Source of the DNA: Thermodesulfobacteriota bacterium
Lineage (GTDB): Bacteria > Desulfobacterota > Binatia > Bin18
Length of the DNA stretch: 64,000 bases
Direction: 5' to 3'
Assembly: GCA_964291405.2 (NCBI GenBank)
Contig: OZ219926.1
Span: 1,088,001 to 1,152,000, forward strand
A program made the position numbers and the translations under genes. This document shows positions 35,385-51,888 of the stretch, piece by piece. Each line of letters begins with the position of its first letter. The first letter of the stretch is position 1. The notes under the pieces are model-generated. The model saw only the letters and a list, made by a program, of their open reading frames with translations. It was not told the origin of the DNA and did no database searches.

Positions 35385-36512
35385 TCACTCGGCGAGCGAC
35401 AGCACCAGGCGCACCAGATCCGCCTGCCGGGTAAGGCCGAGCTTGTGGTACATCTGCCCCAGGTGCCAGTGGATGGATTTTTCCCGTAGCCCCGTCGCCG
35501 CGGCTATCTCGCGCACGCTCTTGCCTTCCGCCAACCACACCGCCACCTGGCTCTCCGTCGGCGAGAGCTCCAGGGCCGCAGCCACCAGCATCGGATCGAG
35601 GCGGGACTGGCGGCCCGGCTCGGCGATCAGCACCAGCGCGGCGACCCGCTGCGCCCCAAAGTCTGGCCGCCGGACGACCACGGGTTTGACGTGCACCACG
35701 AGCGGCGGCCCCACGGCCGCACGCCGGAGCAGCATCGACCCACTGAGGGCGCTCCCGGCAGTCGGCAACGCCTGAGCCACGAGGCGCGCCAGCCGGGCTT
35801 GGTCGGCCGGGGCGCGGGCCCGCAGTTCGCCGTCCCGGTCGAACACGCCATCGCCATGGCGCAGCAGGGCCCGGGCGCGGTCATTCGCCTCCACGATCCG
35901 CCCCCGCCGGTCCAGGTAGAGGACGCCCATCCGCGGCGTGTCGAGCAGCCCGGCCGCCGACACGCCCTGCGCCTCGGCTTTGGCCAGCGTCTGCTGAACC
36001 CGGACAAATTGGCGAATATGGGGCAGCAGCCCCTGAAGTAGCGCCAGTTGCGGCCCTTCCCAGCCCCCCGGGCCGACCGGGTCAGCGGTAGCCCAGGTGA
36101 TATGGGAGCCGTCCGGCCCGTCCAGACGGACATTCAAGCTGTCCTGGCTGCTGGCCCGGAGCATCGACTCGTTGTAGGCAGGCGAGGTCTGCAACTCCTC
36201 GGCCGTGTACAGGTCGGTGATGTGGACCACGCGGCTGTCAGGCAGGCGCCGTACGCGCGGCACGCGCTCGTCGATGGGGTGATAGAGGGTGAGGTATTCG
36301 CGCTCCAGGTCTTCGCGGCGCTCCCCCCGGTAGTGGGCCTGGGCGAAAAGGACTCGGACATCGTCCTTGGGGCCGGCGCCGACCAGCAGGCCATTCCCTT
36401 GCATACCACAGGCCTCATCGATCAGGGCGGAGGTGACCGACCACAGGGTCTCGTCGAGCATAGTCTCGTATAAAGAGGCCAGGATCCGTTCAAACACGTC
36501 TTGGTCACTCAT
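35385..36512 (-). CDS. LuxR/CsgD-family regulator with GAF/PAS-like sensor region
   Basis: C-terminal LSPTESQVAVWLAEGKSVREIA HTH; central LD..GRIVEAN..A PAS-like segment. Confidence 0.85.
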   Translation of the reverse strand: MSDQDVFERILASLYETMLDETLWSVTSALIDEACGMQGNGLLVGAGPKDDVRVLFAQAHYRGERREDLEREYLTLYHPIDERVPRVRRLPDSRVVHITDLYTAEELQTSPAYNESMLRASSQDSLNVRLDGPDGSHITWATADPVGPGGWEGPQLALLQGLLPHIRQFVRVQQTLAKAEAQGVSAAGLLDTPRMGVLYLDRRGRIVEANDRARALLRHGDGVFDRDGELRARAPADQARLARLVAQALPTAGSALSGSMLLRRAAVGPPLVVHVKPVVVRRPDFGAQRVAALVLIAEPGRQSRLDPMLVAAALELSPTESQVAVWLAEGKSVREIAAATGLREKSIHWHLGQMYHKLGLTRQADLVRLVLSLAE

Positions 36513-37080
36513 ACCGTTGCTTCCTGCATTGCGTGCACACACGCCTCTTCCGGTTCACCCTACACGATCGCCCAGCTCCTCTCACCGAGAAAATTACTGG
36601 TTTCCTACATAATATCAGCAGATATTTTCATAAAATAATAAAGAGGGCCGGATAAAGCCCACCGATAACGCCGGGTGGCGGGGATGAAAAAGTGACGCGG
36701 CAGCGCGCTCAATCCGTCGAGCCCGGCCCGGCGCCCCGCTGCGGGGTCTTCCCCTGCTCCCAGAAGGTACTGACAAACCTTGTAAGACTACCTGGTAGTT
36801 TTCCCAGAGTAAAACACCCCGAGATGGTGTATAGGAGCGTTTCACATGCGTGGACGCCGGCCAGGCACCGGACGGCGGTCCCTGGAGAGGGGGGGGGCTG
36901 TGGAGACGCGAGGAATCTTGGGGGGAGCGGGCCGGGGGCAACCAGGTAGAGGCCGGCGGCGCCATGCGGCTGTTGGACAGCGAGACGACGGCGGCAATCT
37001 CGATTCCCGGCGACGGGAAGACGGGCATCGTTGAGATTAATCAGACAAAATGACGTGCAGCGCAGAACGGAGGAGCGCAC

Positions 37081-37617
37081 ATGAGACAGCATACGGATCG
37101 ACGGATGACTTTGTGGGAGGCACGGCGGGTTTTGCTCCTCCATCTCTGTCTGGGGTTGGTGGTCTTGGCGTCGTCTCTGGCACAGGCCGCCTCGCTGGAG
37201 AATCCGAGTGGGGGGCTGTTTTATTCGGGCGTGGGAGTCATCTCGGGCTGGAAGTGTGAAGCCAACGGGGAGCTCACCGTGCGCTTTAACGGGGGAGAGC
37301 CGGTTCCCCTGGTGTACGGCAGCGAGCGGCCCGATGTTCTCGACGCCGGGGCGTGTGCCAGCGCCGATGTCGGCTTTGTGGCTATCTGGAACTGGGCGCG
37401 GCTCGGGGATGGGACCCATACGGCCGTGGCCTACGATGATGGGGAGGAGTTTGCCCGCAGCACGTTTCAGGTCGCCACCCTCGTGGAAGGTGAGGACTTT
37501 GTCCGAGGGATAAGTGGCCGCTTTCGGGCGCGGGACTTTCCGGACCCGGGGGTGAATGTGCTGCTGCGCTGGAATCAGAATGTGCAGGGGTTTGTGATTG
37601 AGGGCGTGGAAGAGTAA
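37081..37617 (+). CDS. Secreted hypothetical protein (LENP...SGVGVISGWKC domain)
   Basis: RBS GGAGGAG, signal peptide ending LAQA, two cysteines, beta-rich. Confidence 0.75.
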   Translation: MRQHTDRRMTLWEARRVLLLHLCLGLVVLASSLAQAASLENPSGGLFYSGVGVISGWKCEANGELTVRFNGGEPVPLVYGSERPDVLDAGACASADVGFVAIWNWARLGDGTHTAVAYDDGEEFARSTFQVATLVEGEDFVRGISGRFRARDFPDPGVNVLLRWNQNVQGFVIEGVEE

Positions 37618-37636
37618 CGGGCCACAGGAGGGCCGC

Positions 37637-40600
37637 ATGAAGAAGCTAAGCACCATCCTGCGTCTCCTGCTCCTAATCGTCCTCCTTGGCTGGACGGGAG
37701 TTATTACACAGCCCGCCTCAGCCCAACAGACCGTCACCCTGTCCGGGCGGGTCACCGACGCTGCCGGCAATGCCGTCTCGGGCGCAACCGTGAATCTGGA
37801 AGACCCCGGCTGGGTTGGACAGGAGACGGACGCGAATGGCAACTATCGCCTCTCGGTGGCCCCGAGGACCTACCGTCTGCGGGTGCGGCCTCGGCACGGT
37901 CCACTCATTGCCCAAAAGATCGAAGGGCTGCGGCTCTCAATGAATACCACCCGCAACTTTGTTTTGGAGGAAGGGGTGACGCTGTCGGGACAGGTCACTG
38001 CCAATGGGCAGCCGGTACCCCATCCGTGGCTGTGGGTCGTAAACGACGAGGGTCAAGAGGTCAGTTTCAATTCTGCGAATGCCTCCGGCCACTACAGTCT
38101 GGGGGTGCCTACCGGGACCTATAAGGTCAACGTGTATAGCGAAGACTTCTTGGGCACGACCGTGGAGGGGGTGGCGATAACCCAGGACACCGTCCTCAAC
38201 ATCACCCTGGAATCCGGCGTACTGCTGGAAGGCACAGTGGTGGACGACGCTGGCCAGCCCGTGCCGGACGCTCAGGTGTGTGCCCGCCTGCCGACCGAGC
38301 GACCGTATGGGCACACCTGTTCTGAGGCCGATCCTGGAGGCCGCTTTCAACTCAGTGTCGCTCCGGAGGTGTATGTCGTTACGGCCACTCCATTAGCCCC
38401 GCTCCACCCGACCCGGCATCGCCTGGAGGTCAGCGGAGCGGGAGTGACAGACCTTGTGCTGACAGTGAGTCGGGACCCCACGCCGTTTGTGCCTGACGAC
38501 CCCCCCAAGGCCGCGCTTATCAGTATCTCCCCGCCTCCGGTGGACGGCGAGGTGACGGTAACCGGAGCGGCCGGTTCCGTTGCACCGCACAGCACGGTCG
38601 TCGCTACGACTCTGGAGACCGGGACCTTTACCACTGCGCAGGCTACGGCCAGTGGAAGCTTTACCGCCAGAGTGTTCGCCCCGGCCAGCACGTCTGTCCT
38701 CATCAAAGCTGACCCGTTCGGTCCGAGCGTGGCGCAGTTTTTACCTGCCCCTGGCGATGAGACCGACCATCCGATTCGACTGAGCAACGGAGAGCAGGGT
38801 GGCAGTCACACGGCGCTCGCAGGCCTCTCCGGAACGATTCTCCGCGTGGCCGACCCCTCAGGCGCAGGCATTCCGAGCGGCGGGGCAGGGCGGATCTATT
38901 GGGACCGGCTTCCCGCTTGGACTTTCCAGGGCTCCATCAATACCCAGACCCTGGCCCCCGGTGATCCGCTACAGGTCCGCGGTAGGGTCCAGATAGATTC
39001 ACCAGCCTTACAGGGGGTCAGCGCGCTCCAGGTGGTTACACGCCTCGAGCTTGAGCGGCTCTCCGACACCGATGGATCGAGTATCCTCCGCCGCAACACT
39101 TTTGCATCTACCTTCGTCACCCCTACCGGGCTACCGATTGAACGGGAGCCTCGGTCTTGGAATGCTGGCTTAAGCCAATTCCAAGACGCACCTTTGGTCA
39201 AAACGTCTTCCACTCAGGCCGAAGCAGAGGTTAATCTGACCCTCGCCCTGCCGCCAGACTTGCCTGCCGGATATTATCGTCCATTTCTTGATTTTGACCT
39301 TCCTGAGATACCACAGGAAGAGCCTCCTAGCCATTCAATTCTTACGCTGACACACTCACCGCGCCGAAGTTCGCCACTCGAAGCCCGCCTGCCGATTATC
39401 CAGGTGGGGAGTCCAGCCCAACCACGCCTGTATTGGACTCTCTTCTTCGACACGCTCAGTAACGGGTCGCGGGGGGTCGTGGCCGTGGAAGACGCCGACC
39501 GTTTTGGCATCGCCCAACGGATTCTCACCTCGTCGGAAACATTTGTGATCCCGCGGCTGGGGATGGCCTCGGGCCAGCCTCTGACCTATCGCCTTGAACC
39601 GTTTGTCCCGACGGTGTCCATTGCCAACGGCGCGCAAGGGAATCTCCCCACCCCGCCTCGCATCCCCTTCCAGTTCCCCTCCGGAAGTCTCACCGTCACG
39701 ATTCACCGCCCCGATGGGACCGAAACGGTTCTGGGACCCGCCCCGTTCGTGCAGCCGCGGCTGAAGAGCCTCGTGGACGACGAGGGCGATCTCTTAGATT
39801 TAGGTGGGGGCCATATCACCAATGCCTACCAACTCAGCACGATGGACCCCCGCTTTGAAGTTTCCTTTGCTCAAGACGGCCTGCACGTCATTACCGTCGA
39901 GGGGACGATTGACGACATCTGGGGGAATACCTGGACCGGAGGTGGGACCTACGAGGTCCAGGTTGGTCGGGTTCTGGCTCTGGATACCGCCGTGCTACCC
40001 GGCACCCACTTTGAGGTGGGCGATGGCTTCAACCCAGGCTTAGTAGTCTCTCCACCGATGACGGCCGAGGTGGAGGTCCGACTTCAGCACATCCCTCACT
40101 CGGATGTCAGCCAGCTCCAGGAGCAGGTGATCCGAGGCCGGACGAACCGCTTTGGATATTTTCAACCGGCGGGCAACAGTGTGATATTCGAGCAGCCGGG
40201 CGAGTACCGGGTGGATATCACGGTACGGGGTCGGGATGACCGGGGGCAACTGTGGATGGGCTCCCGTACTTGGGGCGGCATCGTGGCCCCCATCAATCCC
40301 ACTATCGTCGCCCACGGGCGGCGGGGTATTGATGACCAGGACACGATTGGACCGCAGTGGTTCACGCGTGACCAGATCGGCATTCCGGTTGGTGGAAGCC
40401 ATGTGCACTTTCCCTTTCAGTCCGGCGATGTCACCTGGCTCGAAAATGCAGACGCCTCCATCCCACTCCTGACCTTTCATGACCCGAGCCGCCAGCTCAC
40501 CGAGCTTCTGCGGCCAAGAGCAGACACGATTCCTCTCGGATTTGGCGCCGGTAGCTTTGCGGAGCGCGTCGTGGTGGGCGAAACCCCCCTGTTCCTCAGT

Positions 40601-41752
40601 CGGCCCGATGAGATTGATCCCCATATCGATCCCACCAAAGTCGACCTCTGGGCCTACAGCTATCGCTCCGTGCAGCGCCCCCTCGTTCGTGTCCGTGAAG
40701 AGATTGGCGAAGAAGCCATTCCGAATCCGTACTGGCGCTTTGACGAACGCTACGCCAACCAGATCGGGGTAGGCCAACATGGCGACCTGCCCGGCGAGTT
40801 CAAGTTTCAGTATGGGGCGGCGGTGCTGCATGGCTCCGCGCTTGACCAGTCCCACTATGCCATCCACGGCTCCCTGTTTGTCTTGGTACCGGATGACGAC
40901 CCCGCAGGTTCGCGCACCTTTCCGCCGTTTCAGGGCAATGGTGGGGGGCCGAGCGGTGGCCCCCTCTTTACGCTCAAGGGAGAGGAGATCGATCTCTTTA
41001 TCCATCTGACCGGAGTCCGACCCGGCAGTGTATTGGAGACCGGCAACACCTTTGCCCTTGTCGGGGCCATCGGTCCCACCCTGCCCGCCCAGGTAACCTA
41101 CACCGTTACTGCCCCGGATGGCAGCCAACGGACCTTCAGCGGACAGGCGAATGAAATTGGGTATTACTATGAGCCGGAGGATAACTTCATTGTCGACCAG
41201 CCGGGGCGATACACCGTTGATCTGCAAGTCACGTATGATGGGAGTACCTCCGCTGGGCAAGTGACCGCGCCCTTTCCCCAGGGAGACGTACTCGGCACGG
41301 CCCGGGGACGTTTCTCCGTGTATGTCGTCTCGCCCCATAGTATGCCGTTGACTGTGGACTTGCCTCGGCATGATTTCCTGACGGCACCATCGGACTTCAC
41401 GGTCACGGCCAGTACACCAACAGAGATGACGCTTACGAGCGGGCATATGACAGCGTTGATGCCGGGCGTGGTACTGGAGGATGGGCCACTGTCGGTGGAG
41501 GCCAACGGGCTGACATATGATTACAATCCCGTGAGTCTGGCTGCTGGAGTCCCGATCCTGGATGTAGAACGCTTTGGCCAGCCGGTCGCGGCGGATGTAG
41601 TCACGGTGAGTCTGTTTGGGGAGGGGACGGACAGCGAAGGCCAGCCGAGTTATGCAGCACGAGTGGTGACATTGCACGGGGCAGAGTTCCTCAATCTGAC
41701 ACCGGTCGCGCCTAGCCCCAATGCGATCCGTGACCTGGAACCGCTGGAGTAA
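37637..41752 (+). CDS. Giant secreted protein A: three carboxypeptidase-regulatory-like repeats plus ~1000 aa uncharacterised beta-rich region
   Basis: Signal peptide ending ASA-Q; repeats of V.LSG.V...G.PV..A; ends NAIRDLEPLE. Confidence 0.85.
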   Translation: MKKLSTILRLLLLIVLLGWTGVITQPASAQQTVTLSGRVTDAAGNAVSGATVNLEDPGWVGQETDANGNYRLSVAPRTYRLRVRPRHGPLIAQKIEGLRLSMNTTRNFVLEEGVTLSGQVTANGQPVPHPWLWVVNDEGQEVSFNSANASGHYSLGVPTGTYKVNVYSEDFLGTTVEGVAITQDTVLNITLESGVLLEGTVVDDAGQPVPDAQVCARLPTERPYGHTCSEADPGGRFQLSVAPEVYVVTATPLAPLHPTRHRLEVSGAGVTDLVLTVSRDPTPFVPDDPPKAALISISPPPVDGEVTVTGAAGSVAPHSTVVATTLETGTFTTAQATASGSFTARVFAPASTSVLIKADPFGPSVAQFLPAPGDETDHPIRLSNGEQGGSHTALAGLSGTILRVADPSGAGIPSGGAGRIYWDRLPAWTFQGSINTQTLAPGDPLQVRGRVQIDSPALQGVSALQVVTRLELERLSDTDGSSILRRNTFASTFVTPTGLPIEREPRSWNAGLSQFQDAPLVKTSSTQAEAEVNLTLALPPDLPAGYYRPFLDFDLPEIPQEEPPSHSILTLTHSPRRSSPLEARLPIIQVGSPAQPRLYWTLFFDTLSNGSRGVVAVEDADRFGIAQRILTSSETFVIPRLGMASGQPLTYRLEPFVPTVSIANGAQGNLPTPPRIPFQFPSGSLTVTIHRPDGTETVLGPAPFVQPRLKSLVDDEGDLLDLGGGHITNAYQLSTMDPRFEVSFAQDGLHVITVEGTIDDIWGNTWTGGGTYEVQVGRVLALDTAVLPGTHFEVGDGFNPGLVVSPPMTAEVEVRLQHIPHSDVSQLQEQVIRGRTNRFGYFQPAGNSVIFEQPGEYRVDITVRGRDDRGQLWMGSRTWGGIVAPINPTIVAHGRRGIDDQDTIGPQWFTRDQIGIPVGGSHVHFPFQSGDVTWLENADASIPLLTFHDPSRQLTELLRPRADTIPLGFGAGSFAERVVVGETPLFLSRPDEIDPHIDPTKVDLWAYSYRSVQRPLVRVREEIGEEAIPNPYWRFDERYANQIGVGQHGDLPGEFKFQYGAAVLHGSALDQSHYAIHGSLFVLVPDDDPAGSRTFPPFQGNGGGPSGGPLFTLKGEEIDLFIHLTGVRPGSVLETGNTFALVGAIGPTLPAQVTYTVTAPDGSQRTFSGQANEIGYYYEPEDNFIVDQPGRYTVDLQVTYDGSTSAGQVTAPFPQGDVLGTARGRFSVYVVSPHSMPLTVDLPRHDFLTAPSDFTVTASTPTEMTLTSGHMTALMPGVVLEDGPLSVEANGLTYDYNPVSLAAGVPILDVERFGQPVAADVVTVSLFGEGTDSEGQPSYAARVVTLHGAEFLNLTPVAPSPNAIRDLEPLE

Positions 41753-41766
41753 GGGGAGCAGACCTC

Positions 41767-44700
41767 ATGCACAAGCCAAATTCGGTCCTACGTCTCCTGC
41801 TCCTAATCGTCCTCCTTGGCTGGACGGGAGTTATTACACAGCCCGCCTCAGCCCAACAGACCGTCACCCTGTCCGGGCGGGTCACCGACACCGCTGGCCA
41901 GCCCGTGTCCGGGGTGACCGTGAATCTGAGTCGCTTACCGAACTGGGTCTGGGTTGACGGGCAGGAGACAGACGGCAACGGGGCCTATCGCTTCTCGGTG
42001 CCGCCAGGAACCTACCTCCTTCAGGTGCAGCCTCCCGGCCCGCTCATTGCCCAAGAGATAGAGCTGACGCTCTCAACGAATACCACGCACAACATTGTCT
42101 TGGAGACCGGGGTGACGCTGTCGGGGCGAGTGACCGGCCCTGCCCGCCAGCCCGTGCCGTGGGCATGGCTATCCGTCCGTAACGATGCCGGTCAGCAGAT
42201 CAGTTTCGGTCAGGCAGACGCGTCCGGCCACTACAGCCTCGGCGTGCCCATGGGAACCTATCAGGTCGACGTGTATCACGAGGACTTCATAGACCTGAGT
42301 CTGGAGGGGGTCACAGTGGCCCAGGCCACCGTCCTCAACATCACTCTGAACTCCGGGGTGATGCTGAGAGGCAAAGTCGTGGACGCTGATGGTCAGCCCG
42401 TACCGGACGCAGAGGTCTGTGCCCGCCTACCCGCTGAGCAGCCGTGGGAAGGCGTTTGTTCTGAGACCGGTCCTGAAGGCCGCTTTCAACTCAGTGTCGC
42501 TCCGGAGGTGTATGTCGTCACGGCCACCCCGTTAGCTCCTCTCCAACCGACCCGCCTCCGACGGCTGGAGGTCAGTGAGGAAGGAGTGACGGACCTCGTA
42601 CTGACGGTGAGCCGGGACCCCACGCCGTTCGTGCCCGATGATCCTCCCAAGGCTGCGCTTATCAGCATCTCCCCGCCGACGGCAGACGGTGAAGTAACGG
42701 TGACTGGAACGGCGGGCTCGGTTGCTCCCCAGAGTGCGGTCGTTGCCACGACTCTGGAGACCGGGCATTTCACTACGGCCCAAGCCACGGCTAGTGGAAG
42801 TTTTACGGCGACCCTGTTTGCGTCGGCAGGCACATCAGTCCTCGTCAAAGCCGACCCGGACGGCGCGGCTGTCAGACGGTTTTTGACCACCTCTGGAAGA
42901 GCGCTTATCATTCTTTTTAGCAACGGGGAGCAAGGCGGGGATTCCAGTGCACTCGCAAGCCTCTCCGGCACGATTCTCCGCGTACCCGACCCTCCAGGCG
43001 CCGGCATTCGGATCGGCAGCGCCGGACGGACCGATTGGCGAGAGCCTGGGCTGCCGGCCTGGACCTTCCAGGGCTCCATCAATACCCGGACCCTCGCTCC
43101 CGGTCATCCTCTACAGGTCCATGGCACGGTCCAGGTGGATTCGCCAGCTTTACAGGGGGTGGACGCGCTCCAGGTGGGGACGACCCTCAGGCTTGAGCGG
43201 CTCTCCGACGCCGAGGGGGCGAGTATCCTTCGCCGCAACACTTTTGCGTCCACCTTCACCACCCCCACCGGGTTGCCGATTGAACGGTCCCCCCTACGTT
43301 GGGATGCGGGTTTAGACGTGTCCCGACAAATACCTTTGGTCAAAAGAGTCGCCACGCAGGCCGAGGCGGAGGTCGACCTGACCCTCACCCTGCCGTCTGA
43401 CTTATCCGCCGGATATTATCGCCCGTTTCTGACGTTCTACTTTCCAGAGATGCCGGTGGAGAATCCGCCCAGCCGCTCAGTCATCAAGATAGTACACTTT
43501 GCGGGCCGAGGTTCGTTTAACGAAGCCCACCTGCCGATTATTCGGGTAGGCAGGCCCGCTCCTCCACGCCTGTATTGGCCGCTTCTCTTGGATACGTTCA
43601 GCAATGGGTCACGTGGGATTCTCGCAGAGGAAGACGCGGACCGCTTCGGGACAGCGCAGCGAGTACTGACCCCGTCGGACACGTTCGTGATCCCACGACT
43701 GAGCGCAGCCTCGGGCCAACCGCTGACCTATCGCCTCGAACCGTTTGTCCCCACTGTTGGACTGAGCGACCGAGATATCCCAAGCCCACCCCGTATTCCC
43801 TTCCAGTTTCCCTCCGGGAGTCTCACCGTCACGATTCGCCAGCCCGATGGCTCTGAGAGGGTCCTCGGTCCTGCACCCTTCGTGCAATCTCGACTCAAGA
43901 GTCTTGTGGATGAAGAAGGCGTTCTCCTCGAGAATGGGGGCGGGCATATCAGCGACGCCTACCAACTCAGCACCATGGACCCCCGCTTTGAAGTCGAGTT
44001 TACCCAAGATGGTCTCCATATCATTACCGTAGAAGGCACGATTAATGACATCTGGGGGCATACCTGGAGTGGGGGCGGCACCTACGAAGTCCATGTCGGT
44101 CGGGTCTTAGCCCTGGATACGGCTGTGTTGCCCGGCACCCACTTTGAGGTCGGCGATGGCTTCAATCCGGGCTTAGTCATCTCCCCACCGCTGACGGCGG
44201 AAGTGGAGGTCCGGCTCCAGCACGTCCCGCACTCGGATGCCAGCCAGCTGGAGGAGCGAAAGGTCCGGGGCCGGACGAACCGCTTTGGGTATTTCCAGCC
44301 TGCGGGCAACAGTGTGGTGTTCGAGCAGCCGGGTGAGTACCGGGTCGATATCACGGCGCGGGGCGAGGATGCACAGGGACGGTTATGGATGGGCTCACGC
44401 ACCTGGGGCGGAGTGGTAGCCCCCGTCAATCCGACCATTGTCGCCCACGGGAGACGGGGCGTTGATAAGCAGGACACGATTGGGCCGCAGTGGTTCTTTT
44501 TCGACGACATCCCCCTGCCTGAAAGTGATAATCCGCATGTCCCGTTTCCCTTTCAGTCGGGCGATGTGACCTGGCTCAAAGAGGCAAGGTTAGGCTCCGC
44601 CATCCCGATGGTGACTTTTCACGACCCGAGTCGTCAGCTCACGAGGCTCCTGCGACAAAGAGGGGGTGAGGACCAAGTCCCTCTGCTCAGCCCCGGTAGC

Positions 44701-45897
44701 TTCGCCGAGCGGGTGGTGGTGGGTGAAACGCCGCTGTTCTCCAGTCGGCCCGATGGCATTGATCCCCATCTTGACCCCAGCAAGGTGGACCTCTGGGCCT
44801 ATAGCTACAGCTCGTCCCAGCGCCCCCTCGTGCGGGTCCGCGAGGAGATTGGCGAAGATGCGATACAGTCAGCGTACTGGCGTTTTGATGATCGCTACGC
44901 CAAGCAAATTGGGGTGGGTCAACACGGTGACCTGCCCGGCGAGTTCAAGTTTCAGTATGGGGCGGCGGTGCTGCACGGTCCGGCCCTTGACCAAGCCCAC
45001 TATGCCATCCACGGTTCGCTGTTTGTCCTGGTGCCCGATGACGATCCCTTGGGCCAGCGCACTTTTCCCCCGTTTCAGGGGAACGGTGGCGGGCCAAGCG
45101 GCGGCCCCCTCTTTACCCTTAAAGGCGAAGAGATTGATCTCTTCATCCATCTGACCGGGGTCCGGCCGGGGAGTGTGTTGGAGACAGGCAATACCTTCGC
45201 CTTGGTCGGTGCTATTGGCCCTACGTTACCGGCCCAGGTAACCTACACCGTCACCGCCCCGGATGGCAGCAAACGAACCTTCAGCGGTTGGGCCAATGAA
45301 ATCGGGTATTACTATGAGCCGGACGATAATTTCATCGTGGACCAGCCTGGGCGGTACACGGTTGATCTGCAAGTGACATACGATGGGAGTACTTCCGCCG
45401 GGCAAGTGACCGCGCCGTTTCCGCAAGGCGACGTGTTGGGTACGGCGCGGGGCCGTTTCTCGGTGTATGTCGTCTCTCCCCACAGCTCTCCCCTCACCGT
45501 GGACCTACCCCGGCACGACTTCCTGACGGCACCAGCGGACTTTACGGTCACAGCCAGCGCGTCTAGTGGACTGACGCTCACCGAGGGGCATATAACAGCC
45601 TTGATGCCGGGAGTGGTGCTGGAGGACGGGCCACTAACGGTGAGGAACAACGGACTAACCTATGATTACGATCCGGTGGGCTTGGCCGCGGGGGTGTCGA
45701 TCCTGGATGTGGAGCGGAATGGGGTCCCAGTGGCGGCGGATGTCGTCACGGTGAGTCTATTCGGACAGGGGACGGACAGCGAAGGTCAGCCGAGTTATGC
45801 AGCGCGAGTGGTGACATTACACGGGCCGGAGTTCCTAAGCTTAACGCTGGTCGCGCCCGGCCCCAATGCGATCCGCGATCTGGAACCGCTGGAGTAA
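41767..45897 (+). CDS. Giant secreted protein B, full-length paralogue of A
   Basis: Collinear with A, same signal peptide core, ends NAIRDLEPLE. Confidence 0.85.
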   Translation: MHKPNSVLRLLLLIVLLGWTGVITQPASAQQTVTLSGRVTDTAGQPVSGVTVNLSRLPNWVWVDGQETDGNGAYRFSVPPGTYLLQVQPPGPLIAQEIELTLSTNTTHNIVLETGVTLSGRVTGPARQPVPWAWLSVRNDAGQQISFGQADASGHYSLGVPMGTYQVDVYHEDFIDLSLEGVTVAQATVLNITLNSGVMLRGKVVDADGQPVPDAEVCARLPAEQPWEGVCSETGPEGRFQLSVAPEVYVVTATPLAPLQPTRLRRLEVSEEGVTDLVLTVSRDPTPFVPDDPPKAALISISPPTADGEVTVTGTAGSVAPQSAVVATTLETGHFTTAQATASGSFTATLFASAGTSVLVKADPDGAAVRRFLTTSGRALIILFSNGEQGGDSSALASLSGTILRVPDPPGAGIRIGSAGRTDWREPGLPAWTFQGSINTRTLAPGHPLQVHGTVQVDSPALQGVDALQVGTTLRLERLSDAEGASILRRNTFASTFTTPTGLPIERSPLRWDAGLDVSRQIPLVKRVATQAEAEVDLTLTLPSDLSAGYYRPFLTFYFPEMPVENPPSRSVIKIVHFAGRGSFNEAHLPIIRVGRPAPPRLYWPLLLDTFSNGSRGILAEEDADRFGTAQRVLTPSDTFVIPRLSAASGQPLTYRLEPFVPTVGLSDRDIPSPPRIPFQFPSGSLTVTIRQPDGSERVLGPAPFVQSRLKSLVDEEGVLLENGGGHISDAYQLSTMDPRFEVEFTQDGLHIITVEGTINDIWGHTWSGGGTYEVHVGRVLALDTAVLPGTHFEVGDGFNPGLVISPPLTAEVEVRLQHVPHSDASQLEERKVRGRTNRFGYFQPAGNSVVFEQPGEYRVDITARGEDAQGRLWMGSRTWGGVVAPVNPTIVAHGRRGVDKQDTIGPQWFFFDDIPLPESDNPHVPFPFQSGDVTWLKEARLGSAIPMVTFHDPSRQLTRLLRQRGGEDQVPLLSPGSFAERVVVGETPLFSSRPDGIDPHLDPSKVDLWAYSYSSSQRPLVRVREEIGEDAIQSAYWRFDDRYAKQIGVGQHGDLPGEFKFQYGAAVLHGPALDQAHYAIHGSLFVLVPDDDPLGQRTFPPFQGNGGGPSGGPLFTLKGEEIDLFIHLTGVRPGSVLETGNTFALVGAIGPTLPAQVTYTVTAPDGSKRTFSGWANEIGYYYEPDDNFIVDQPGRYTVDLQVTYDGSTSAGQVTAPFPQGDVLGTARGRFSVYVVSPHSSPLTVDLPRHDFLTAPADFTVTASASSGLTLTEGHITALMPGVVLEDGPLTVRNNGLTYDYDPVGLAAGVSILDVERNGVPVAADVVTVSLFGQGTDSEGQPSYAARVVTLHGPEFLSLTLVAPGPNAIRDLEPLE

Positions 45898-45956
45898 GTC
45901 TTCCCCCGTCTGATGTGGGGCTAACGGCGATGGAAGACGAACGGGGAAGCCCTGTC

Positions 45957-47762
45957 ATGCGTATCGTCTCCCCCTTATTGCGGAGTCTATACTTCCTAGC
46001 GTTGATTATCTGCGTCCTCCTCTGCTTCCCCACCTCCACCCCCGCCACAAGCAGTATCGGTCTCACCCCAGACGGCACGACCGTCTTTGTCGTCAACCCG
46101 GACTCCGGCTCCGTATCCGCAATCGACGCCGCCTCAGCGACCACGCGGGCCGAACTCATCGTGGGTCGTGACCCCCGCATGCTCACCATCGGGCCGGACG
46201 GCCAGCGGCTGTACGTCACCAGCCAAGCCTCGGCAACACTGACCATCCTGGAGACCCAGCCGTTCTCGATCCTTACTAAACTCCGCGTCGGCCCGGAGCC
46301 CTATGGCGTCGTCGCCGACCCCACCGGCCACCTCGTATACGTGGCCGCATCCGGCGCCGACCGGATTGACGTCATCGACACCGAACTCGTCCAAGTCGTG
46401 GACACCATCCCCGTACAACCCCGGCCCAAGGGCCTCGCCATTTCTGAAGATGGGACCCGGCTCTACGTCACCCATTTCCTGTCCGGCACGGTCTCGGTTA
46501 TTGATCTGGAAAGCCGAAGCGTGCTCGAAGTCATTGCCACCGGCCCCGAGAGCAACATCGCCCAACGTATCGCCCTGCACCCCACGAATGGCCGCGCCTA
46601 TCTGCCCCATATCCGCTCCAATGTCAGCAACCCCCACCCCCTGTTTGATACCACGCTCTTTCCGGTCGTCTCCGTCATTGACCTGGCAACCGACCAACAT
46701 CTGCTCCCCGAACGGCTGGAACTCTCGGTCGTAGACCGGCCGGTCAATCTCCCCTTCGATCTGGCCCTGTCGTCCGATGGGCAACGGATGCATATCGTCC
46801 ACCTGGGGAGTGGGGATCTGTCGGTCATTGATCTGGAAACCCGCCAAGTGCTCGCGCATATCGAGGTGGGGGATGGGCCACGGGGCATCGTACTCACCCC
46901 GGACGACCGCACCGCCTATGTGGCGAATGCACTCTCGGGCGATGTGTCGGTCATTGATCTCCGTACCTTCGCAGAAGTCACCCGCATTCCGGTGACCACC
47001 AGCCCACTCTCGCCAGAGTTGAAACGAGGGAAACTCTTGTTTATCTCCAGCCGCTCAACCCGCATCTCCCGGGACCAGTGGATGAGTTGCGAGAGCTGTC
47101 ATGCAGACGGGGAGCAGGATGGGCGGACCTGGCTGTTTCCCGACGGTCCCCGCAACACGACGAATCTCAGAGGGCTGGCGGATACCCACCCGCTGCACTG
47201 GAGTGCGGACCGAGATGAGGTGCAGGATTTTGAATTCACCATCCGGGAGTTGCAGGCGGGGACGGGGTTGCTGGAGGACCCGCATCTCGAACTCGGATCG
47301 CCCAATACGGGGCGGTCGGCTGATCTGGATGCGCTCGCGGCGTTTATCGAATCGCTGCAACCCAAGCCCAGTCCGTTTCGACGGGCAGACGGAACGCTCA
47401 CGTCGGAGGCGGAGCGTGGGCAAGCCATCTTTCACCGGGCGGATGTGGGCTGCGCGGACTGCCATATCCCACCGCTTTTTACCGATTTGCAGGTGCATGA
47501 TATCGGCACGGGTCACGGGCCAGGTGAACTCTTGGGGCCGGCGTTTGATACGCCATCGCTGCGGGGGGTCTGGCATACGGCTCCCTATCTGCACGATGGG
47601 CGGGCGCCCACTCTTCGGGATGTGGTGGTCACTCATAACCCTACTGGCCAACATGGTCAGACCTCGCAGTTATCGGAGGTGGAGGTGCAAGATCTAATCG
47701 CCTTTCTGCGGTCTCTGGAGGGAGACAAGAGCCGGGTGCAGGACTTGGAACGGCTGGAGTAA
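45957..47762 (+). CDS. YVTN beta-propeller fused to a di-heme cytochrome c peroxidase/MauG-like domain
   Basis: Repeats of PDG.RLYV....VSVID; CESCH and CADCH; GPRNT and FDTPSLRGV..TAPYLHDG motifs; ends SRVQDLERLE. Confidence 0.85.
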   Translation: MRIVSPLLRSLYFLALIICVLLCFPTSTPATSSIGLTPDGTTVFVVNPDSGSVSAIDAASATTRAELIVGRDPRMLTIGPDGQRLYVTSQASATLTILETQPFSILTKLRVGPEPYGVVADPTGHLVYVAASGADRIDVIDTELVQVVDTIPVQPRPKGLAISEDGTRLYVTHFLSGTVSVIDLESRSVLEVIATGPESNIAQRIALHPTNGRAYLPHIRSNVSNPHPLFDTTLFPVVSVIDLATDQHLLPERLELSVVDRPVNLPFDLALSSDGQRMHIVHLGSGDLSVIDLETRQVLAHIEVGDGPRGIVLTPDDRTAYVANALSGDVSVIDLRTFAEVTRIPVTTSPLSPELKRGKLLFISSRSTRISRDQWMSCESCHADGEQDGRTWLFPDGPRNTTNLRGLADTHPLHWSADRDEVQDFEFTIRELQAGTGLLEDPHLELGSPNTGRSADLDALAAFIESLQPKPSPFRRADGTLTSEAERGQAIFHRADVGCADCHIPPLFTDLQVHDIGTGHGPGELLGPAFDTPSLRGVWHTAPYLHDGRAPTLRDVVVTHNPTGQHGQTSQLSEVEVQDLIAFLRSLEGDKSRVQDLERLE

Positions 47763-47825: not shown

Positions 47826-48710
47826 TCACAGCCAGCCCGATTTGCGACGGCTTGGCGGTTCCACACCGGTCAGACAAAGCCGCACCGCGCTCCAGGCCGC
47901 GTGAAATGCGCTGCGCAAGGCAACCGCGTCAACGGCGAGTACGCGCATCCAGACACCCGCATTGTCAGGCAGAATCGACGCACCGGTATAGATGTCGGGA
48001 AGAGGATCGAGCGCCGCTCGTAAGGCGGTCACCAATTCCTCGGTATCGTGGTCCGACACCACCCAGAACGTCCCCTGCGTCTGATAGCGCCGCAGGGCCG
48101 AGGGCAGACTCGTAACGAACTCGTGACCGCTCATCTCGAAGCGGTCCACACAGCGACGCTGTCCGTCCGGTCGCTGGAATACGGTTTCGCTGAAAATCGA
48201 ACCAAACGGACGGCCCAAGGCTTCCGGGTCGTGCAGTCCAAAGGCATCGCCGCTAATGGCCGTCGCGCCTTCTTCGACAGCGATATGGACCGAAGAGCGA
48301 AAGTGCGCTTGGGGGAATAATGCGAGCGGGTCGGGCAGGTATTCGACAAAGCTGCCCTTGCCCGCTCGAATGGAAACCTGTTGTGTGGCGACCCTCCCCT
48401 CCCGCATCGAGTGGACAACAGTCGCCCCTTGGGTGGTCAGATGCACACACGCGCCGTCTTCCACCGAAAAATCAAGCGTTAAGCGCTCATTTTCATACAC
48501 CCCACCAGAGATGGACTGGAGCATCAGCGTCAGCATCCCGTGCGGAGCCCGGTCGAGACAGAACGGCTGGGTAAGGGTGAAGGGATAGGTCGTCCGTTGC
48601 TCGGCGAGAAAGGTTTGACCGGAGGGGTCACGTTTGAAGCTGAGGGAAACGTGCGGGGACGTAACGGAGCATGGCTCAACCGAGAGCCCAGGGGCGGATG
48701 CACTGCTCAT
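47826..48710 (-). CDS. ureD: Urease accessory protein UreD/UreH
   Basis: SGGVYENERL...HLTTQGATVV...EYLPDP; in the ure cluster. Confidence 0.85.
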   Translation of the reverse strand: MSSASAPGLSVEPCSVTSPHVSLSFKRDPSGQTFLAEQRTTYPFTLTQPFCLDRAPHGMLTLMLQSISGGVYENERLTLDFSVEDGACVHLTTQGATVVHSMREGRVATQQVSIRAGKGSFVEYLPDPLALFPQAHFRSSVHIAVEEGATAISGDAFGLHDPEALGRPFGSIFSETVFQRPDGQRRCVDRFEMSGHEFVTSLPSALRRYQTQGTFWVVSDHDTEELVTALRAALDPLPDIYTGASILPDNAGVWMRVLAVDAVALRSAFHAAWSAVRLCLTGVEPPSRRKSGWL

Positions 48711-48734
48711 GGCGTTCCACGGAAGCGGCGCCGC

Positions 48735-50444
48735 TCAGCGTAAAAAATACTTTCTGGCGAGCGGGACTTCATCCGCGGGCTCGCACGTCATCAGCTCGCC
48801 ATCGGCGTAGACCTCATGCGTGTGCGGGTTGACGGTGATGTCCGGGCAAGTGTCGTTATGCAGCATATCCCCCTTCCCCACCGCGCGCGTGTTCCGAATC
48901 GGCAACATGGGTTTGTGGAGTTCGAGTTTGCGCGGAATATCAGCCTCAAGCGCCAGGGAACTGGCGAAGACCGCACTCAGGGCAGACGGCGCGCTGCCCA
49001 CCGCTCCCCACATGGGACGCTGGATAATCGGCTCAACCGGGAAGATGCAGCCACTCGCGTCTCCCATGATGGACCAGGCCATAAAGCCGCCCTTCATCAC
49101 CATCAACGGTTTGGCACCAAAAAATGCCGCTCCCCACAGTACCAGATCGGCCATCTTCCCGGCCTCCAGCGAGCCGACGTAATGGTCAATGCCCATCGCC
49201 CGGGCCGGGTTGATGGTATATTTGGCGATATAGCGTTTGATCCGCTCGTTATCGGCGCGCGCTGTTCTTTCCGTGGGAAGACGGCCGCGTTGGTCCTTCA
49301 TTTTACTCGCCAGCCGCCAGCAATTCGTAATGGTTTCATGCACCCGCCCCATCCCCTGCGTGTCCGCGGCAAACATCGAGATCGCGCCCAGGTCGTGCAA
49401 CACGTCTTCCGCGGCCATGGTCTGCGGCCGAATGCGGCTTTCGGCAAAGGCGACATCTTCCGGTAAGCGCCAATTCAGCATATGGGCGTCCATGGTCATG
49501 GGCAGGGCTTCGTCGAGCGCGTTGCGCGAGTAGGGGTTGGTCGGATTGGTGGAAGACGGCAGGCAGTTGGGCTCGCCCGCCACACGGATGAGATCGGGCG
49601 CGTGGCCGCCGCCGGCCCCCTCGACGTGGTACATATGAATCGTCCGACCGGCGATCGCGGCCAGCGTGTCCTCACAGTAGCCGGCCTCGTTGATGGTGTC
49701 GGTATGGAGCTGAACCTGAAAATCGTATTGATCCGCCACCGTGAGCGCGCAGTCTATGGTGGCCGGCATGGCTCCGAAATCCTCGTGGACCTTGACGCCG
49801 ATCGCCCCACCGGCCACGCTCTCCTCAATCGCGGCGCCGACGTGCGAGTTGCCCCGTCCCAGAAAGCCGAAATTCAAGGGATAGTGCTCGCAGGCTTTGA
49901 GCATCTTGGCCAGATTATTCGGCCCCGCGCAGCTGATATCGAAATGCGGCCCCATGGTGCCGCCAATAATGGTCGTAATGCCGCTGGCCAGGGCGTGTTC
50001 ACACTGCTGCGGACACAGGAAGTGGGCGTGCGCCTCCACTCCCCCTGGGGTAATGATCAGGCCATCGCCGTGCACGATGGTCGTACAGGGACCGCAGACC
50101 AGCTCGGGCTGGACCCCGTCCTGGATGGCGGGATTCCCGGCTTTGCCCACACCGACGATCTTACCCTCCTTAATACCGATATCGCCCTTCACGATGCCCA
50201 GCACCGGGTCGATGATCGTGGCGTTCTGGACCACCATATCCAGCCCACCCGACGCCGCGGTCGTGGCGGCGTGAAAGCCCATCCCGTCGCGCATCACCTT
50301 GCCGGCCCCGGTCAGACACTCGTCGCCATAGACCGCAGAGTCGTGCTCAACCTCGGCCAGCAGCGAGGTGTCGCCCAGACGCACCATATCGCCCGTTGTT
50401 GGCCCATACGTGGCCGCATAGGCCGCCCGTGTCAGTCTGGCCAT
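48735..50444 (-). CDS. ureC: Divergent urease alpha subunit (urease-like dinickel amidohydrolase)
   Basis: [45 protein letters not shown] and [11 protein letters not shown] motifs. Confidence 0.9.
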
Positions 50445-50452
50445 GTTCCCTC

Positions 50453-51157
50453 CTATGCGCCCTTAAAACCGCGCTCTTTGGCCCGTTGGAGAGCGGCCCG
50501 CTTGACCGCTTCGGAATGAATAGAGCCGTTGGTGAGATTGTTGAGACCGGTGACTTCGCCGCTGCCGCCCAGGGCGACTAACGGAACGGCTTTCTTCACC
50601 CCGGGCTCAAAGCGCACCGACGCGCCCGCCGGCACGTCCGGACGCATGCCGAACGCCTGCGCCCGATCAAACTCCAGGGCCTTGTTGGCTTCAAAGAAAT
50701 GAAAATGGCTGGCCACCTGGATGGCACGATCTCCGGTATTGACGACCTCCAGGGTCAGGGTTTTGCGGCCTGCGTTCAGGTCTATCTCTTCGTCAGGTGT
50801 GATGATCCCACCGGGTCGCCCATACGGTGATTCAGGCAGGGGCTCGGAGCCGGGGCGGATCGGATTATACACGGCAATGAGCTTGGTCCCATCCGGGAAC
50901 ATCCCATCAACCATAATCCGGGATACCAGTTGGGCAACGCTGGGCAGCACGTCGTCTGTCGTCAGCAGCGTTGACCCCAGGCTGACCAGCTCCGCGACCG
51001 ATTTCCCCTCGCGCGCGCCCTCAAGCAGTTCGTCCGTGATATAGGCAATGGCCTCGGCCGCGTTGAGCTTGAGCCCTTTGGCCTTATGGCGGCGCGCAAG
51101 TTCAGCCGCCATAAAAATAGTGAGGCGTTCGTTTTCCGTAGGCGTGAGGTTCAGCAT
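50453..51157 (-). CDS. ureAB: Fused urease gamma-beta subunit
   Basis: GLKLN...FPDGTKL (gamma) joined to [19 protein letters not shown]...VRFEPG (beta). Confidence 0.92.
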
Positions 51158-51213
51158 GGGCGTTCCTCCTGGAGATCGACTACTGAGCGTGGGGTCTGCA
51201 CCAGGCGCACAGG

Positions 51214-51888
51214 TCAGTTTGCAAACAACCGCGTCGCCTGGGTCTCATGACGCATCATGGCAATATCCGCGACCGGCGTAAAGCTGCTGAGAAACTCGGG
51301 TAAGGGCGTGACAAGCAGCGCGGTCAGCGTGGGGCGTATGTGCTGCACAATCAGTTGGGCCTGGATATGGCTTACAAAGCCGAGCCGGATGGCGGCACTC
51401 ACAAACGCCATGCCCTGGAGATGGCCGGACAGCAGACTGGCCTGCTCCGCGTCTAACCCGACCCCCCGCCAGACCAGCCCTTGAACAACCGGGAGATGAC
51501 TCCACGCCTGCCCGGTTTTGACACGCTCCAGATAGTCGGCCGCACGGGGCGTCTTAAGCCGGTCGTGCACGCGCAGCAAGACCCGGCCGGCCCGCTGCGA
51601 TACGACGCGCAACTCGCGCGCAAGCGAGAGCGCTTCCAGTTCTGCATCAACCACAGCAACTTTTTCCAGCTCGCCCGCGGCGCGATGCGCCCACACCAGG
51701 GCGGGTCGGTCGCAGCATGCCCAACGATGGTGGAGTTGACCCTGGACAAAGTGCAGCAAGGTCTCGGCGTCATGCACATAGGAATCGGTGAAGAGCGTCT
51801 CCAACCCCCACGAAGCCGCAAAGCCACCACCGGGGAAAAAGCTGTCGCCGTGTTGCAACGCAGTCAGCAGGGCAATCGAGTCAGTCAT
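51214..51888 (-). CDS. ureF: Urease accessory protein UreF
   Basis: [20 protein letters not shown]...SAAIRL...[13 protein letters not shown]. Confidence 0.9.

Follow-up and report, generated by a model that had tools for sequence, protein, structure and literature searches.

A C-terminal octapeptide common to two unrelated families of exported proteins in a Binatia gene cassette, a candidate docking motif

The window analysed in this work is a 64-kb stretch of the 4.95-Mb genome of an uncultured soil Binatia, and positions given without a contig or locus name are those of the whole stretch. It contains a cassette of four genes, named here S, A, B and C, which lie in the same orientation and tightly packed (intergenic gaps S/A, A/B and B/C of 19, 14 and ~59 nucleotides (nt), respectively) between a divergent LuxR-type gene and a convergent gene; the co-oriented, tightly spaced run described in an earlier sequence-only reading of this DNA is confirmed by the coordinates. 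The first gene, S (37081..37617, + strand), encodes an exported stand-alone module of 178 amino acids (aa), called 'LENP' below. Gene A (37637..41752, +) encodes an exported protein of 1371 aa in which N-terminal CarboxypepD_reg domains (Pfam PF13620, 9.3e-33) are followed by an all-beta core of ~1100 aa, and B (41767..45897, +; 1376 aa) is its paralogue with 78% identity. The last gene, C (45957..47762, +; 601 aa), encodes an exported protein that combines a YVTN seven-bladed beta-propeller with a di-heme CCP/MauG-like domain; an ATG at 45930 may alternatively be its true start. A signal peptide had been ascribed to each of the four proteins, and their N-termini fit this by eye, showing the charged n-region, hydrophobic core and AxA-like site that resemble a Sec signal peptide.

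The main observation of this work is a short peptide with which three of these proteins end. The translations of A and B finish with NAIRDLEPLE* at 41720-41752 and 45865-45897, and that of C with SRVQDLERLE* at 47730-47762; the sequence-only reading had given these endings correctly, although with start coordinates 3 nt late. Directly before the stop, A (41726..41749, +) and B (45871..45894, +) carry the octapeptide I-R-D-L-E-P-L-E, as read from the translations, and C carries an appended segment, EGDKSRVQDLERLE (47718..47759, +), whose last eight residues, V-Q-D-L-E-R-L-E, are the shared motif. Since A and B are paralogues, a tail common to both is expected; A and C, however, have no detectable similarity (best BLASTP E 0.97), and therefore the tail common to these two is the real observation.

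Endings of this kind are rare. As found in a six-frame scan of the whole genome, [DE]LE.LE terminates 8 of 41,848 open reading frames (ORFs) of at least 60 aa, seven of them belonging to two cassettes (five A-type genes, two C-type genes) and the eighth being an unrelated ORF of 61 aa. The second cassette lies at C3:4502545-4516768, in the order S, three A-type genes, C. When 28 genomes of the genus were scanned with a degenerate DNA pattern for D-L-E-x-(L/V/F)-E-stop, multiple matches occurred only in cassette-bearing genomes, at the ends of A or C genes or in remnants of them, and one other recurrent match was an unrelated conserved small ORF ending in DLEFLE. The proposal that the tail brings unrelated cargo together is therefore not supported, since in these genomes A-type genes, C-type genes and remnants of the two are its sole carriers, and the unrelated gene inserted in the cassettes L016 and L018 is tail-less. 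A metagenome scan with a single codon version of DLERLE-stop gave three matches, none of them cassette-derived, of which two lie in short ORFs and one ends a MurA-like gene (by eye). In the literature, the strings DLERLE, DLEPLE and DLERVE matched only unrelated German or Turkish words among the matches listed, and the cassette was not found in the excerpts available of the literature on Binatota and on YVTN/MauG/diheme proteins; the available part of PMC12758564 treats hydrazine-synthase homologues only. The small ORF ending in ..FVGIDLEFLE* lies outside the window at G000 C3:1417755 (- strand) and is also present in L029, L032, L043, L045, L052 and L053. It is kept in at least 12 genomes of the genus, with or without a cassette, with an open frame of 61-205 aa, and could represent either a genuine small gene or an alternative frame of such a gene.

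The conservation of the tail was examined in homologues picked by overall similarity and not by the tail. In the C family it is found on 94 of the best 120 homologues, 5 others being truncated or frameshifted, and the 21 intact tail-less ones, all at ≤66% identity, stop at ..FLLSL, the final helix of the cytochrome domain, or a few residues from it; this comparison, which the sequence-only reading had recommended, indicates that the tail is not a universal structural end of these proteins. Two divergent C homologues keep it, as SRIQDLERLE at 59% overall identity and as SRIEDLERLD at 54%. Close homologues of A end in [IVL]-R-D-L-E-[PRS]-[LV]-[EG] in 119 of 120 cases, and among the distant members of the A family the tail is present on one of the best 150 out of 810 cluster representatives, namely that of the nearest cluster. 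A homologues at 50-60% identity have endings such as ..DESLDGD, ..TELEQGP and ..EAAHEE. The appended segment of C has the form EG-x-KSRVQDLERLE, and in A a Pro-rich linker, TPVAPxP, stands before the motif. In the AlphaFold2 models, the predicted local distance difference test score (pLDDT) drops from 48 to 32 over residues 589-601 of C and from 52 to 34 over the last 13 residues of A. With these low terminal values in otherwise confident models, the tail behaves as a flexible terminal peptide, exposed and modelled as disordered (pLDDT <50). Judged from the alignments, the tail is a clade-specific appended segment, and the earlier statement that it stands on non-homologous proteins of a cassette headed by the gene at 37081 holds good, with the tail both appended and selected.

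The comparison of synonymous with non-synonymous changes that had been proposed for the tail was run on 35 distinct 3' ends, 19 of A-type and 16 of C-type genes; as these were collected via the tail itself, only the synonymous variation is informative. Asp is encoded by GAC or GAT, the first Leu by CTG, CTC, CTT, TTG or CTA, Glu by GAA or GAG, the second Leu/Val by TTG, CTG, TTA, GTG or GTA, and the stop after the tail is TAA, TGA or TAG, which amounts to two to five synonymous codons each for D, L, E, L/V, E and stop. In both families, synonymous variation affects the stop and all tail codons but one of the six; that one is the variable P/R site in A and, in C, a fixed R written with four codons. 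Copies of the cassette have 73-85% DNA identity, their homology beginning ~23 nt before S and ending with the C stop codon. Because synonymous codons vary and the copies are no closer than this, the tail is old and conserved as a peptide, and selection acts on it as a peptide and not as DNA. A recent local duplication fails as an explanation.

These data bear directly on the possibility that the tail similarity reflects a DNA element, that is, a recombination junction, as had been suggested, or a regulatory site for cassette swapping. Such an element would find support in the local DNA match GA..TGGAAC.GCTGGAGTAAG, which is indeed present at the three gene ends in the window, in the inter-copy homology that ends at the C stop codon, and in the GGAG of the tail, which could act as a ribosome-binding site for the next gene. 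Nevertheless, the synonymous variation of the single-residue codons, the three different stops and the divergence of the copies all speak against it, and the chimeras produced by deletion join elsewhere, at VVT(L)H in G004 and between the S start and C residue 133 in L062. Moreover, C is followed by a convergent gene, so that a downstream ribosome-binding site would be needless. The data contradict this explanation, which we reject as extremely improbable.

The cassette unit consists of S, one to three A-type genes and C, and as the flanks differ at every copy, it is self-contained. Cassette-bearing genomes hold one to three copies at differing sites. An orthologue of C (E≤1e-80) is present in 1 of 401 genomes of a phylum sample, which is the genome studied here, and in 8 of 56 genomes of the order, belonging to two of its 11 genera; the C-terminal region of A is present in 5 of the 28 genomes of the genus. 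The genus g265 (L063, L064) has the gene order LuxR-C-A-S or A-S-C-A and the same tails. Syntenic sites elsewhere hold remnants in the form of C-terminal C fragments (G001, G015, G018 and G011), and isolated 3' fragments of C occupy sites that have an intact cassette in other genomes. Remnants were located at L022:5103-5306 (G004), L023:5354-5554 (G015), L015:5943-6572 (G018) and L062:1453-2945 (G023). The one in G004 is a 67-aa chimera in which an A end (..YAARVVT) is joined to a C end (HNPTDRHG..SRVQDLERVG), and in L062 the first 32 codons of S abut C residue 133, out of frame. At L064:15570-17285, an A-type gene of the other genus is split by an ORF of 571 aa whose end (..HKAKGG.DNLSNLVLLH..CH..H) resembles, by eye, the HNH tail of a group II intron reverse transcriptase.

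The two families that carry the tail are of very different nature. The core of A has no match in Pfam or NCBIfam, and sequence searches of the PDB with A and with an A-family profile gave nothing useful; the family is large, with 810 representatives at E≤0.001 in an exhaustive HMMER search (50%-identity clusters). Residues 250-1371 are modelled with high confidence (mean pLDDT 91.5, predicted template modelling score (pTM) 0.92) as nearly all beta. Fold searches, which scarcely probed residues ~640-860, returned only generic Ig/MG/filamin/fn3 sandwiches (VIA Z ≤9.4), and a catalytic fold may lie within this region. In close homologues the C-terminal half (from ~628) is near-invariant and the N-terminal half variable. 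An identity of A as an alpha-2-macroglobulin or complement C3 was considered and rejected: it has no C.EQ thioester motif and only two Cys (215 and 228), its model is almost entirely beta, and Foldseek comparison with alpha-2-macroglobulin and C3/C4 gave a TM-score of ~0.1 with a root-mean-square deviation >24 Å. Other lineages of A possess tails of their own, as 22 of 150 proteins (P0241-P0390) end in P[KR]RR[AS][AV]R[R] and a few in ..[FY]LP[LI]V[IV][KR]; from these endings, the site after the last domain is evidently where lineage-specific tails arise.

In C, the propeller is of the YVTN type (NCBIfam TIGR02276, 7.1e-48, six stretches) and the top Foldseek matches of the protein are 1l0q_A (E 2.8e-22) and 5c2v_B (E 5.2e-21). 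Its two haem motifs, CESCH at 378 and CADCH at 499, are invariant in 102 aligned homologues, and its scores exceed the Pfam cut-offs (in parentheses) for CCP_MauG with 31.1 bits (25.6), RoxA-like_Cyt-c with 34.3 (26.7) and Cytochrom_C with 29.4 (21.3), which places it in the di-heme CCP/MauG superfamily. The AlphaFold2 model has a mean pLDDT of 88.4 and a pTM of 0.89. C was also considered as a hydrazine synthase beta-gamma and rejected, since it scores 159.4 bits against a cut-off of 1250 for NF052342 and the likeness is in architecture only. In Planctomycetota, the homologues of C (L077-L133) stand alone with no A-like gene nearby, and have extensions after ..FLKSL of the forms PYEDP..A..AGL.K[VI].[KR] and PYE.PP.ETPNTVKYR...

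A and C are also found together elsewhere. In Terriglobia, the loci L068, L073 and L075 have C followed by an A-like gene; a metagenome-assembled genome of Bryobacterales encodes a C-A fusion of 1517 aa (L071:9875-14428); and the metagenomic proteins P0385 and P0389 are fusions of an A core, a propeller and a CCP_MauG domain. None of these loci and fusions has S or the tail. Given that they lie side by side in Acidobacteriota and also occur as fusions of both orders, A and C are functionally linked partners. A comparable arrangement is known from MauG-preMADH and MbnH-MbnP: C has two CxxCH haems and is CCP_MauG/RoxA-like, and it is tied to a large partner, A. By this analogy, C and A may form an enzyme-partner pair. 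The likeness has its limits, as C scores 58 bits against an equivalog cut-off of 444 for MauG, and 57 against one of 363 for MbnH, and its N-terminal part is a YVTN propeller; its partner A bears no relation to MADH or MbnP, and no modification chemistry is inferable.

The geometry of the fusions raises the possibility that the tails contact the partner directly, the tail of A lying on C (the propeller face being one candidate site) and the tail of C on A, with S having another job. In P0385 and P0389, A runs at its C-terminus into the N-terminus of the propeller, and in L071 the C-terminal end of C leads into the A core at residue ~693, which means that both termini are compatible with an adjoining partner. 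Beta-propellers commonly bind peptides. Direct contact would demand, however, that two different proteins each have a site for the same peptide, and we consider it unlikely.

S is the only cassette protein without the tail. S has 0 families at E≤10 in Pfam and 0 in NCBIfam, and 0 PDB chains at E≤10 with an 86-sequence profile. The LENP module (~140 aa) that it represents has 43 domain matches in this genome. Of the 56 genomes of the order, 51 contain it, at up to 57 matches per genome; among 201 genomes sampled across the phylum it occurs in one, again the genome studied here. It stands directly after the signal peptide in small proteins and as a tandem pair at the extreme C-terminus in large ones, which include subtilases (with cadherin and fn3 domains) and LRR, Spondin_N, BACON, GLUG and FGE-sulfatase-like proteins; example loci are G000 C3 3808637-3815326, 4421851-4429500 and 72160-74976 (L135-L149). 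Presence on many unrelated secreted proteins is what would be expected of an anchoring or assembly module, and from its distribution LENP appears to serve generally for attachment or assembly outside the cell and is a candidate for a new, order-specific family of extracellular modules.

The S gene heads 9 of the 9 cassettes with available upstream DNA. Among 120 S-family proteins listed, 42 are cassette orthologues (41 full-length or 5'-cut at ≥71% identity and one fragment), and they differ from the paralogues mainly in the last ~40 residues. They share an invariant patch, GRFRARDFP[DE]PG, where paralogues have Cys, acidic or hydrophobic residues. The GRFRARDFP patch is retained in the S-like proteins of g265 at an overall identity of only 43-46%, and stand-alone S-like genes of cassette-less genomes lack it. 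The orthologues end in Q[GN]FVIE.[VI]E[EK], that of the window in FVIEGVEE. This ending (..VIEGVEE) was considered as a fourth copy of the tag and dropped, as in the alignment with the paralogues it falls on the final strand of the LENP fold.

We hypothesize that A and C are assembled through the octapeptide [IV]-[RQ]-D-L-E-[PR]-[LV]-E-COOH acting as a short linear docking motif, perhaps on S, a reading we prefer tentatively and with somewhat less than even confidence. According to this proposal, one Binatia lineage would have gained the octapeptide, on a flexible linker, at the C-termini of the paired proteins A and C; the same handle would direct both to equivalent sites on a common receptor and so hold them together. 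The coupling that other lineages, some Acidobacteriota among them, achieve by fusing A to C would here be achieved by the common handle and S. As a free-standing copy of LENP, S would serve as the receptor, its Arg-rich patch holding the acidic C-terminus. Sequence features make S the most likely receptor, as it is the only tail-less cassette protein, has a cassette-specific basic patch and is made of a module that is normally covalently attached to secreted cargo. Binding by the tail, its partner and the site of the complex, periplasm or surface, are steps that we infer; C requires periplasmic haem attachment, which implies only exit from the cytoplasm, and a periplasmic location is equally as possible as a surface complex. 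Co-folding of mature S (37-178) with a segment of A that comprises its last domain plus tail (1232-1371), run without controls, gave ipSAE values of 0.00 and 0.01 (mark 0.32) and counts neither way.

Some points weigh against docking on S. The co-occurrence of S with the tail is essentially one phylogenetic event, in one Binatia family, and counts for little statistically. At position -3, half of the A tails carry Pro and C carries Arg, so that identical binding is not required. LENP is present in 51 of 56 genomes and the cassette in 8, which indicates that LENP has a role independent of the tail. Finally, the ten-residue peptide could instead pack on its own protein or on the partner. A broader version of the idea, in which LENP is the sorting or anchoring unit of an order-wide, undescribed placement system and DLExLE a minimal second ticket to it, binding S or mimicking ..I-T-D-V-E, seems to us quite unlikely; if true, it would represent a new class of C-terminal targeting signal without a transmembrane segment.

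A different function for the tail would be as an export or surface-sorting signal, read by machinery external to the cassette, for instance in crossing or attaching to the outer membrane, and perhaps mimicking the LENP ends ..NFVIT[DE]VE. All carriers have export-signal-like N-termini (by eye), and the private tails of other A lineages (P[KR]RR..R in 22 of 150, and a few ..LPLVxR) and of the Planctomycetota C homologues are what lineage-specific signals would look like. In addition, [IL][TE].[VL]E$ is matched by 11 of 8190 ORFs of ≥150 aa, these being the 7 tails and 4 proteins with a C-terminal LENP domain; this pattern was, however, derived post hoc from both sets, approximately one chance match is expected, and in LENP the residues concerned are the last beta-strand of the fold and not a free peptide. 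A general signal should also mark many cargoes, whereas the tail is borne by the A and C families alone, which rules it out as a general sorting tag. The cassette has no linked transporter, its flanks differ per copy, and 23 of the 28 genomes of the genus, which lack both cassette genes, would retain a reader without a ligand. A sorting function is thus improbable in our view, to about the same degree as direct contact between A and C.

It could also be argued that the acidic end does not dock at all and is a protective cap, being a poor substrate of tail-specific proteases, or a processing site or cleaved propeptide. Tsp/Prc tail-specific proteases favour small apolar C-terminal residues, and both tails are flexible and end in Glu. 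For such a cap, however, one or two charged last residues would suffice, whereas eight positions, including two invariant Leu (or Leu/Val), are conserved at 54% identity, and the same sequence on two families would be left unexplained. We judge this explanation very unlikely.

Docking of A and C through the tail, the reading preferred here, has a known counterpart in the dockerin-cohesin system of cellulosomes, in which different secreted proteins bear the same C-terminal docking element for non-covalent attachment to a scaffold module, as our working model proposes for the tail and S. A dockerin, however, is a folded, calcium-binding domain of ~60-70 aa, and here the element is an 8-residue disordered acidic peptide on two families whose binding is predicted; no Dockerin or Cohesin match was found in A, B or C with Pfam, and the tail is too short for the duplicated ~22-residue calcium-binding loop-helix. 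The signals of LPXTG/sortase, PEP-CTERM/exosortase and GlyGly-CTERM/rhombosortase are likewise short, conserved, lineage-specific C-terminal motifs of exported proteins. These are tripartite (motif, transmembrane helix and basic cluster) and serve dozens of cargoes, whereas here the motif is terminal, without a hydrophobic stretch, and restricted to two families. As the sequence-only reading had remarked, the tail has neither the transmembrane segment nor the basic end of such signals, the protein ending at the motif; the last 10 residues have a mean Kyte-Doolittle value of -0.6 to -1.2 and a net charge of -1 to -2, and no NCBIfam sorting-signal model matched at E≤0.01. The C-terminal domain of Type IX secretion, a beta-sandwich of ~70-100 aa, differs from a tail of 8-13 residues with pLDDT <50 and no NCBIfam or Pfam model. 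Type I secretion does not fit either, as the carriers have signal-peptide-like N-termini and the cassette has only S, A-type genes and C, with no linked transporter. In PDZ and TPR ligands, such as the YxF end of outer-membrane proteins recognised by DegS and the EEVD end recognised by TPR co-chaperones, a free C-terminal carboxylate and a few residues are common to non-homologous proteins. The tail is of a different sequence class, since ligands of PDZ domains have a hydrophobic last residue and EEVD belongs to the cytosol of eukaryotes; the cassette encodes neither a PDZ nor a TPR protein.

Regarding the surroundings of the cassette, the divergent regulator (35385..36542, - strand) belongs to the LuxR family (Pfam GerE 1.5e-11, residues 326-379). 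A LuxR-like gene is likewise found ahead of the cassette in L064 and next to the G004 remnant, and the second copy in this genome has no adjoining LuxR regulator, so that the earlier association of the cassette with a divergent LuxR gene is valid for the window, L064 and the G004 remnant but not for that copy. A promoter and terminator scan found fewer sites than in shuffled sequence. On the 3' side of C, window positions 47826-51888 (- strand) contain a urease-like cluster, recognised by eye, with a UreD-like gene of 294 aa, a UreC of 569 aa, an apparent gamma+beta fusion of 234 aa and a UreF-like gene of 224 aa.

If the tail is a docking handle, it would constitute a compact, transferable tag for assembling unrelated exported proteins, far smaller than a dockerin and unlike the catalogued sorting signals. 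The analysis also exposes an uncharacterised protein family of considerable size (810 clusters at 50% identity; no Pfam model covers its core) that is tied by fusion to a propeller/di-heme enzyme in Binatia and Acidobacteriota. It further exposes an A-C pair that may carry out oxidative chemistry outside the cytoplasm, together with a candidate order-specific extracellular module without known relatives. All three come from soil lineages that are abundant and yet uncultured.

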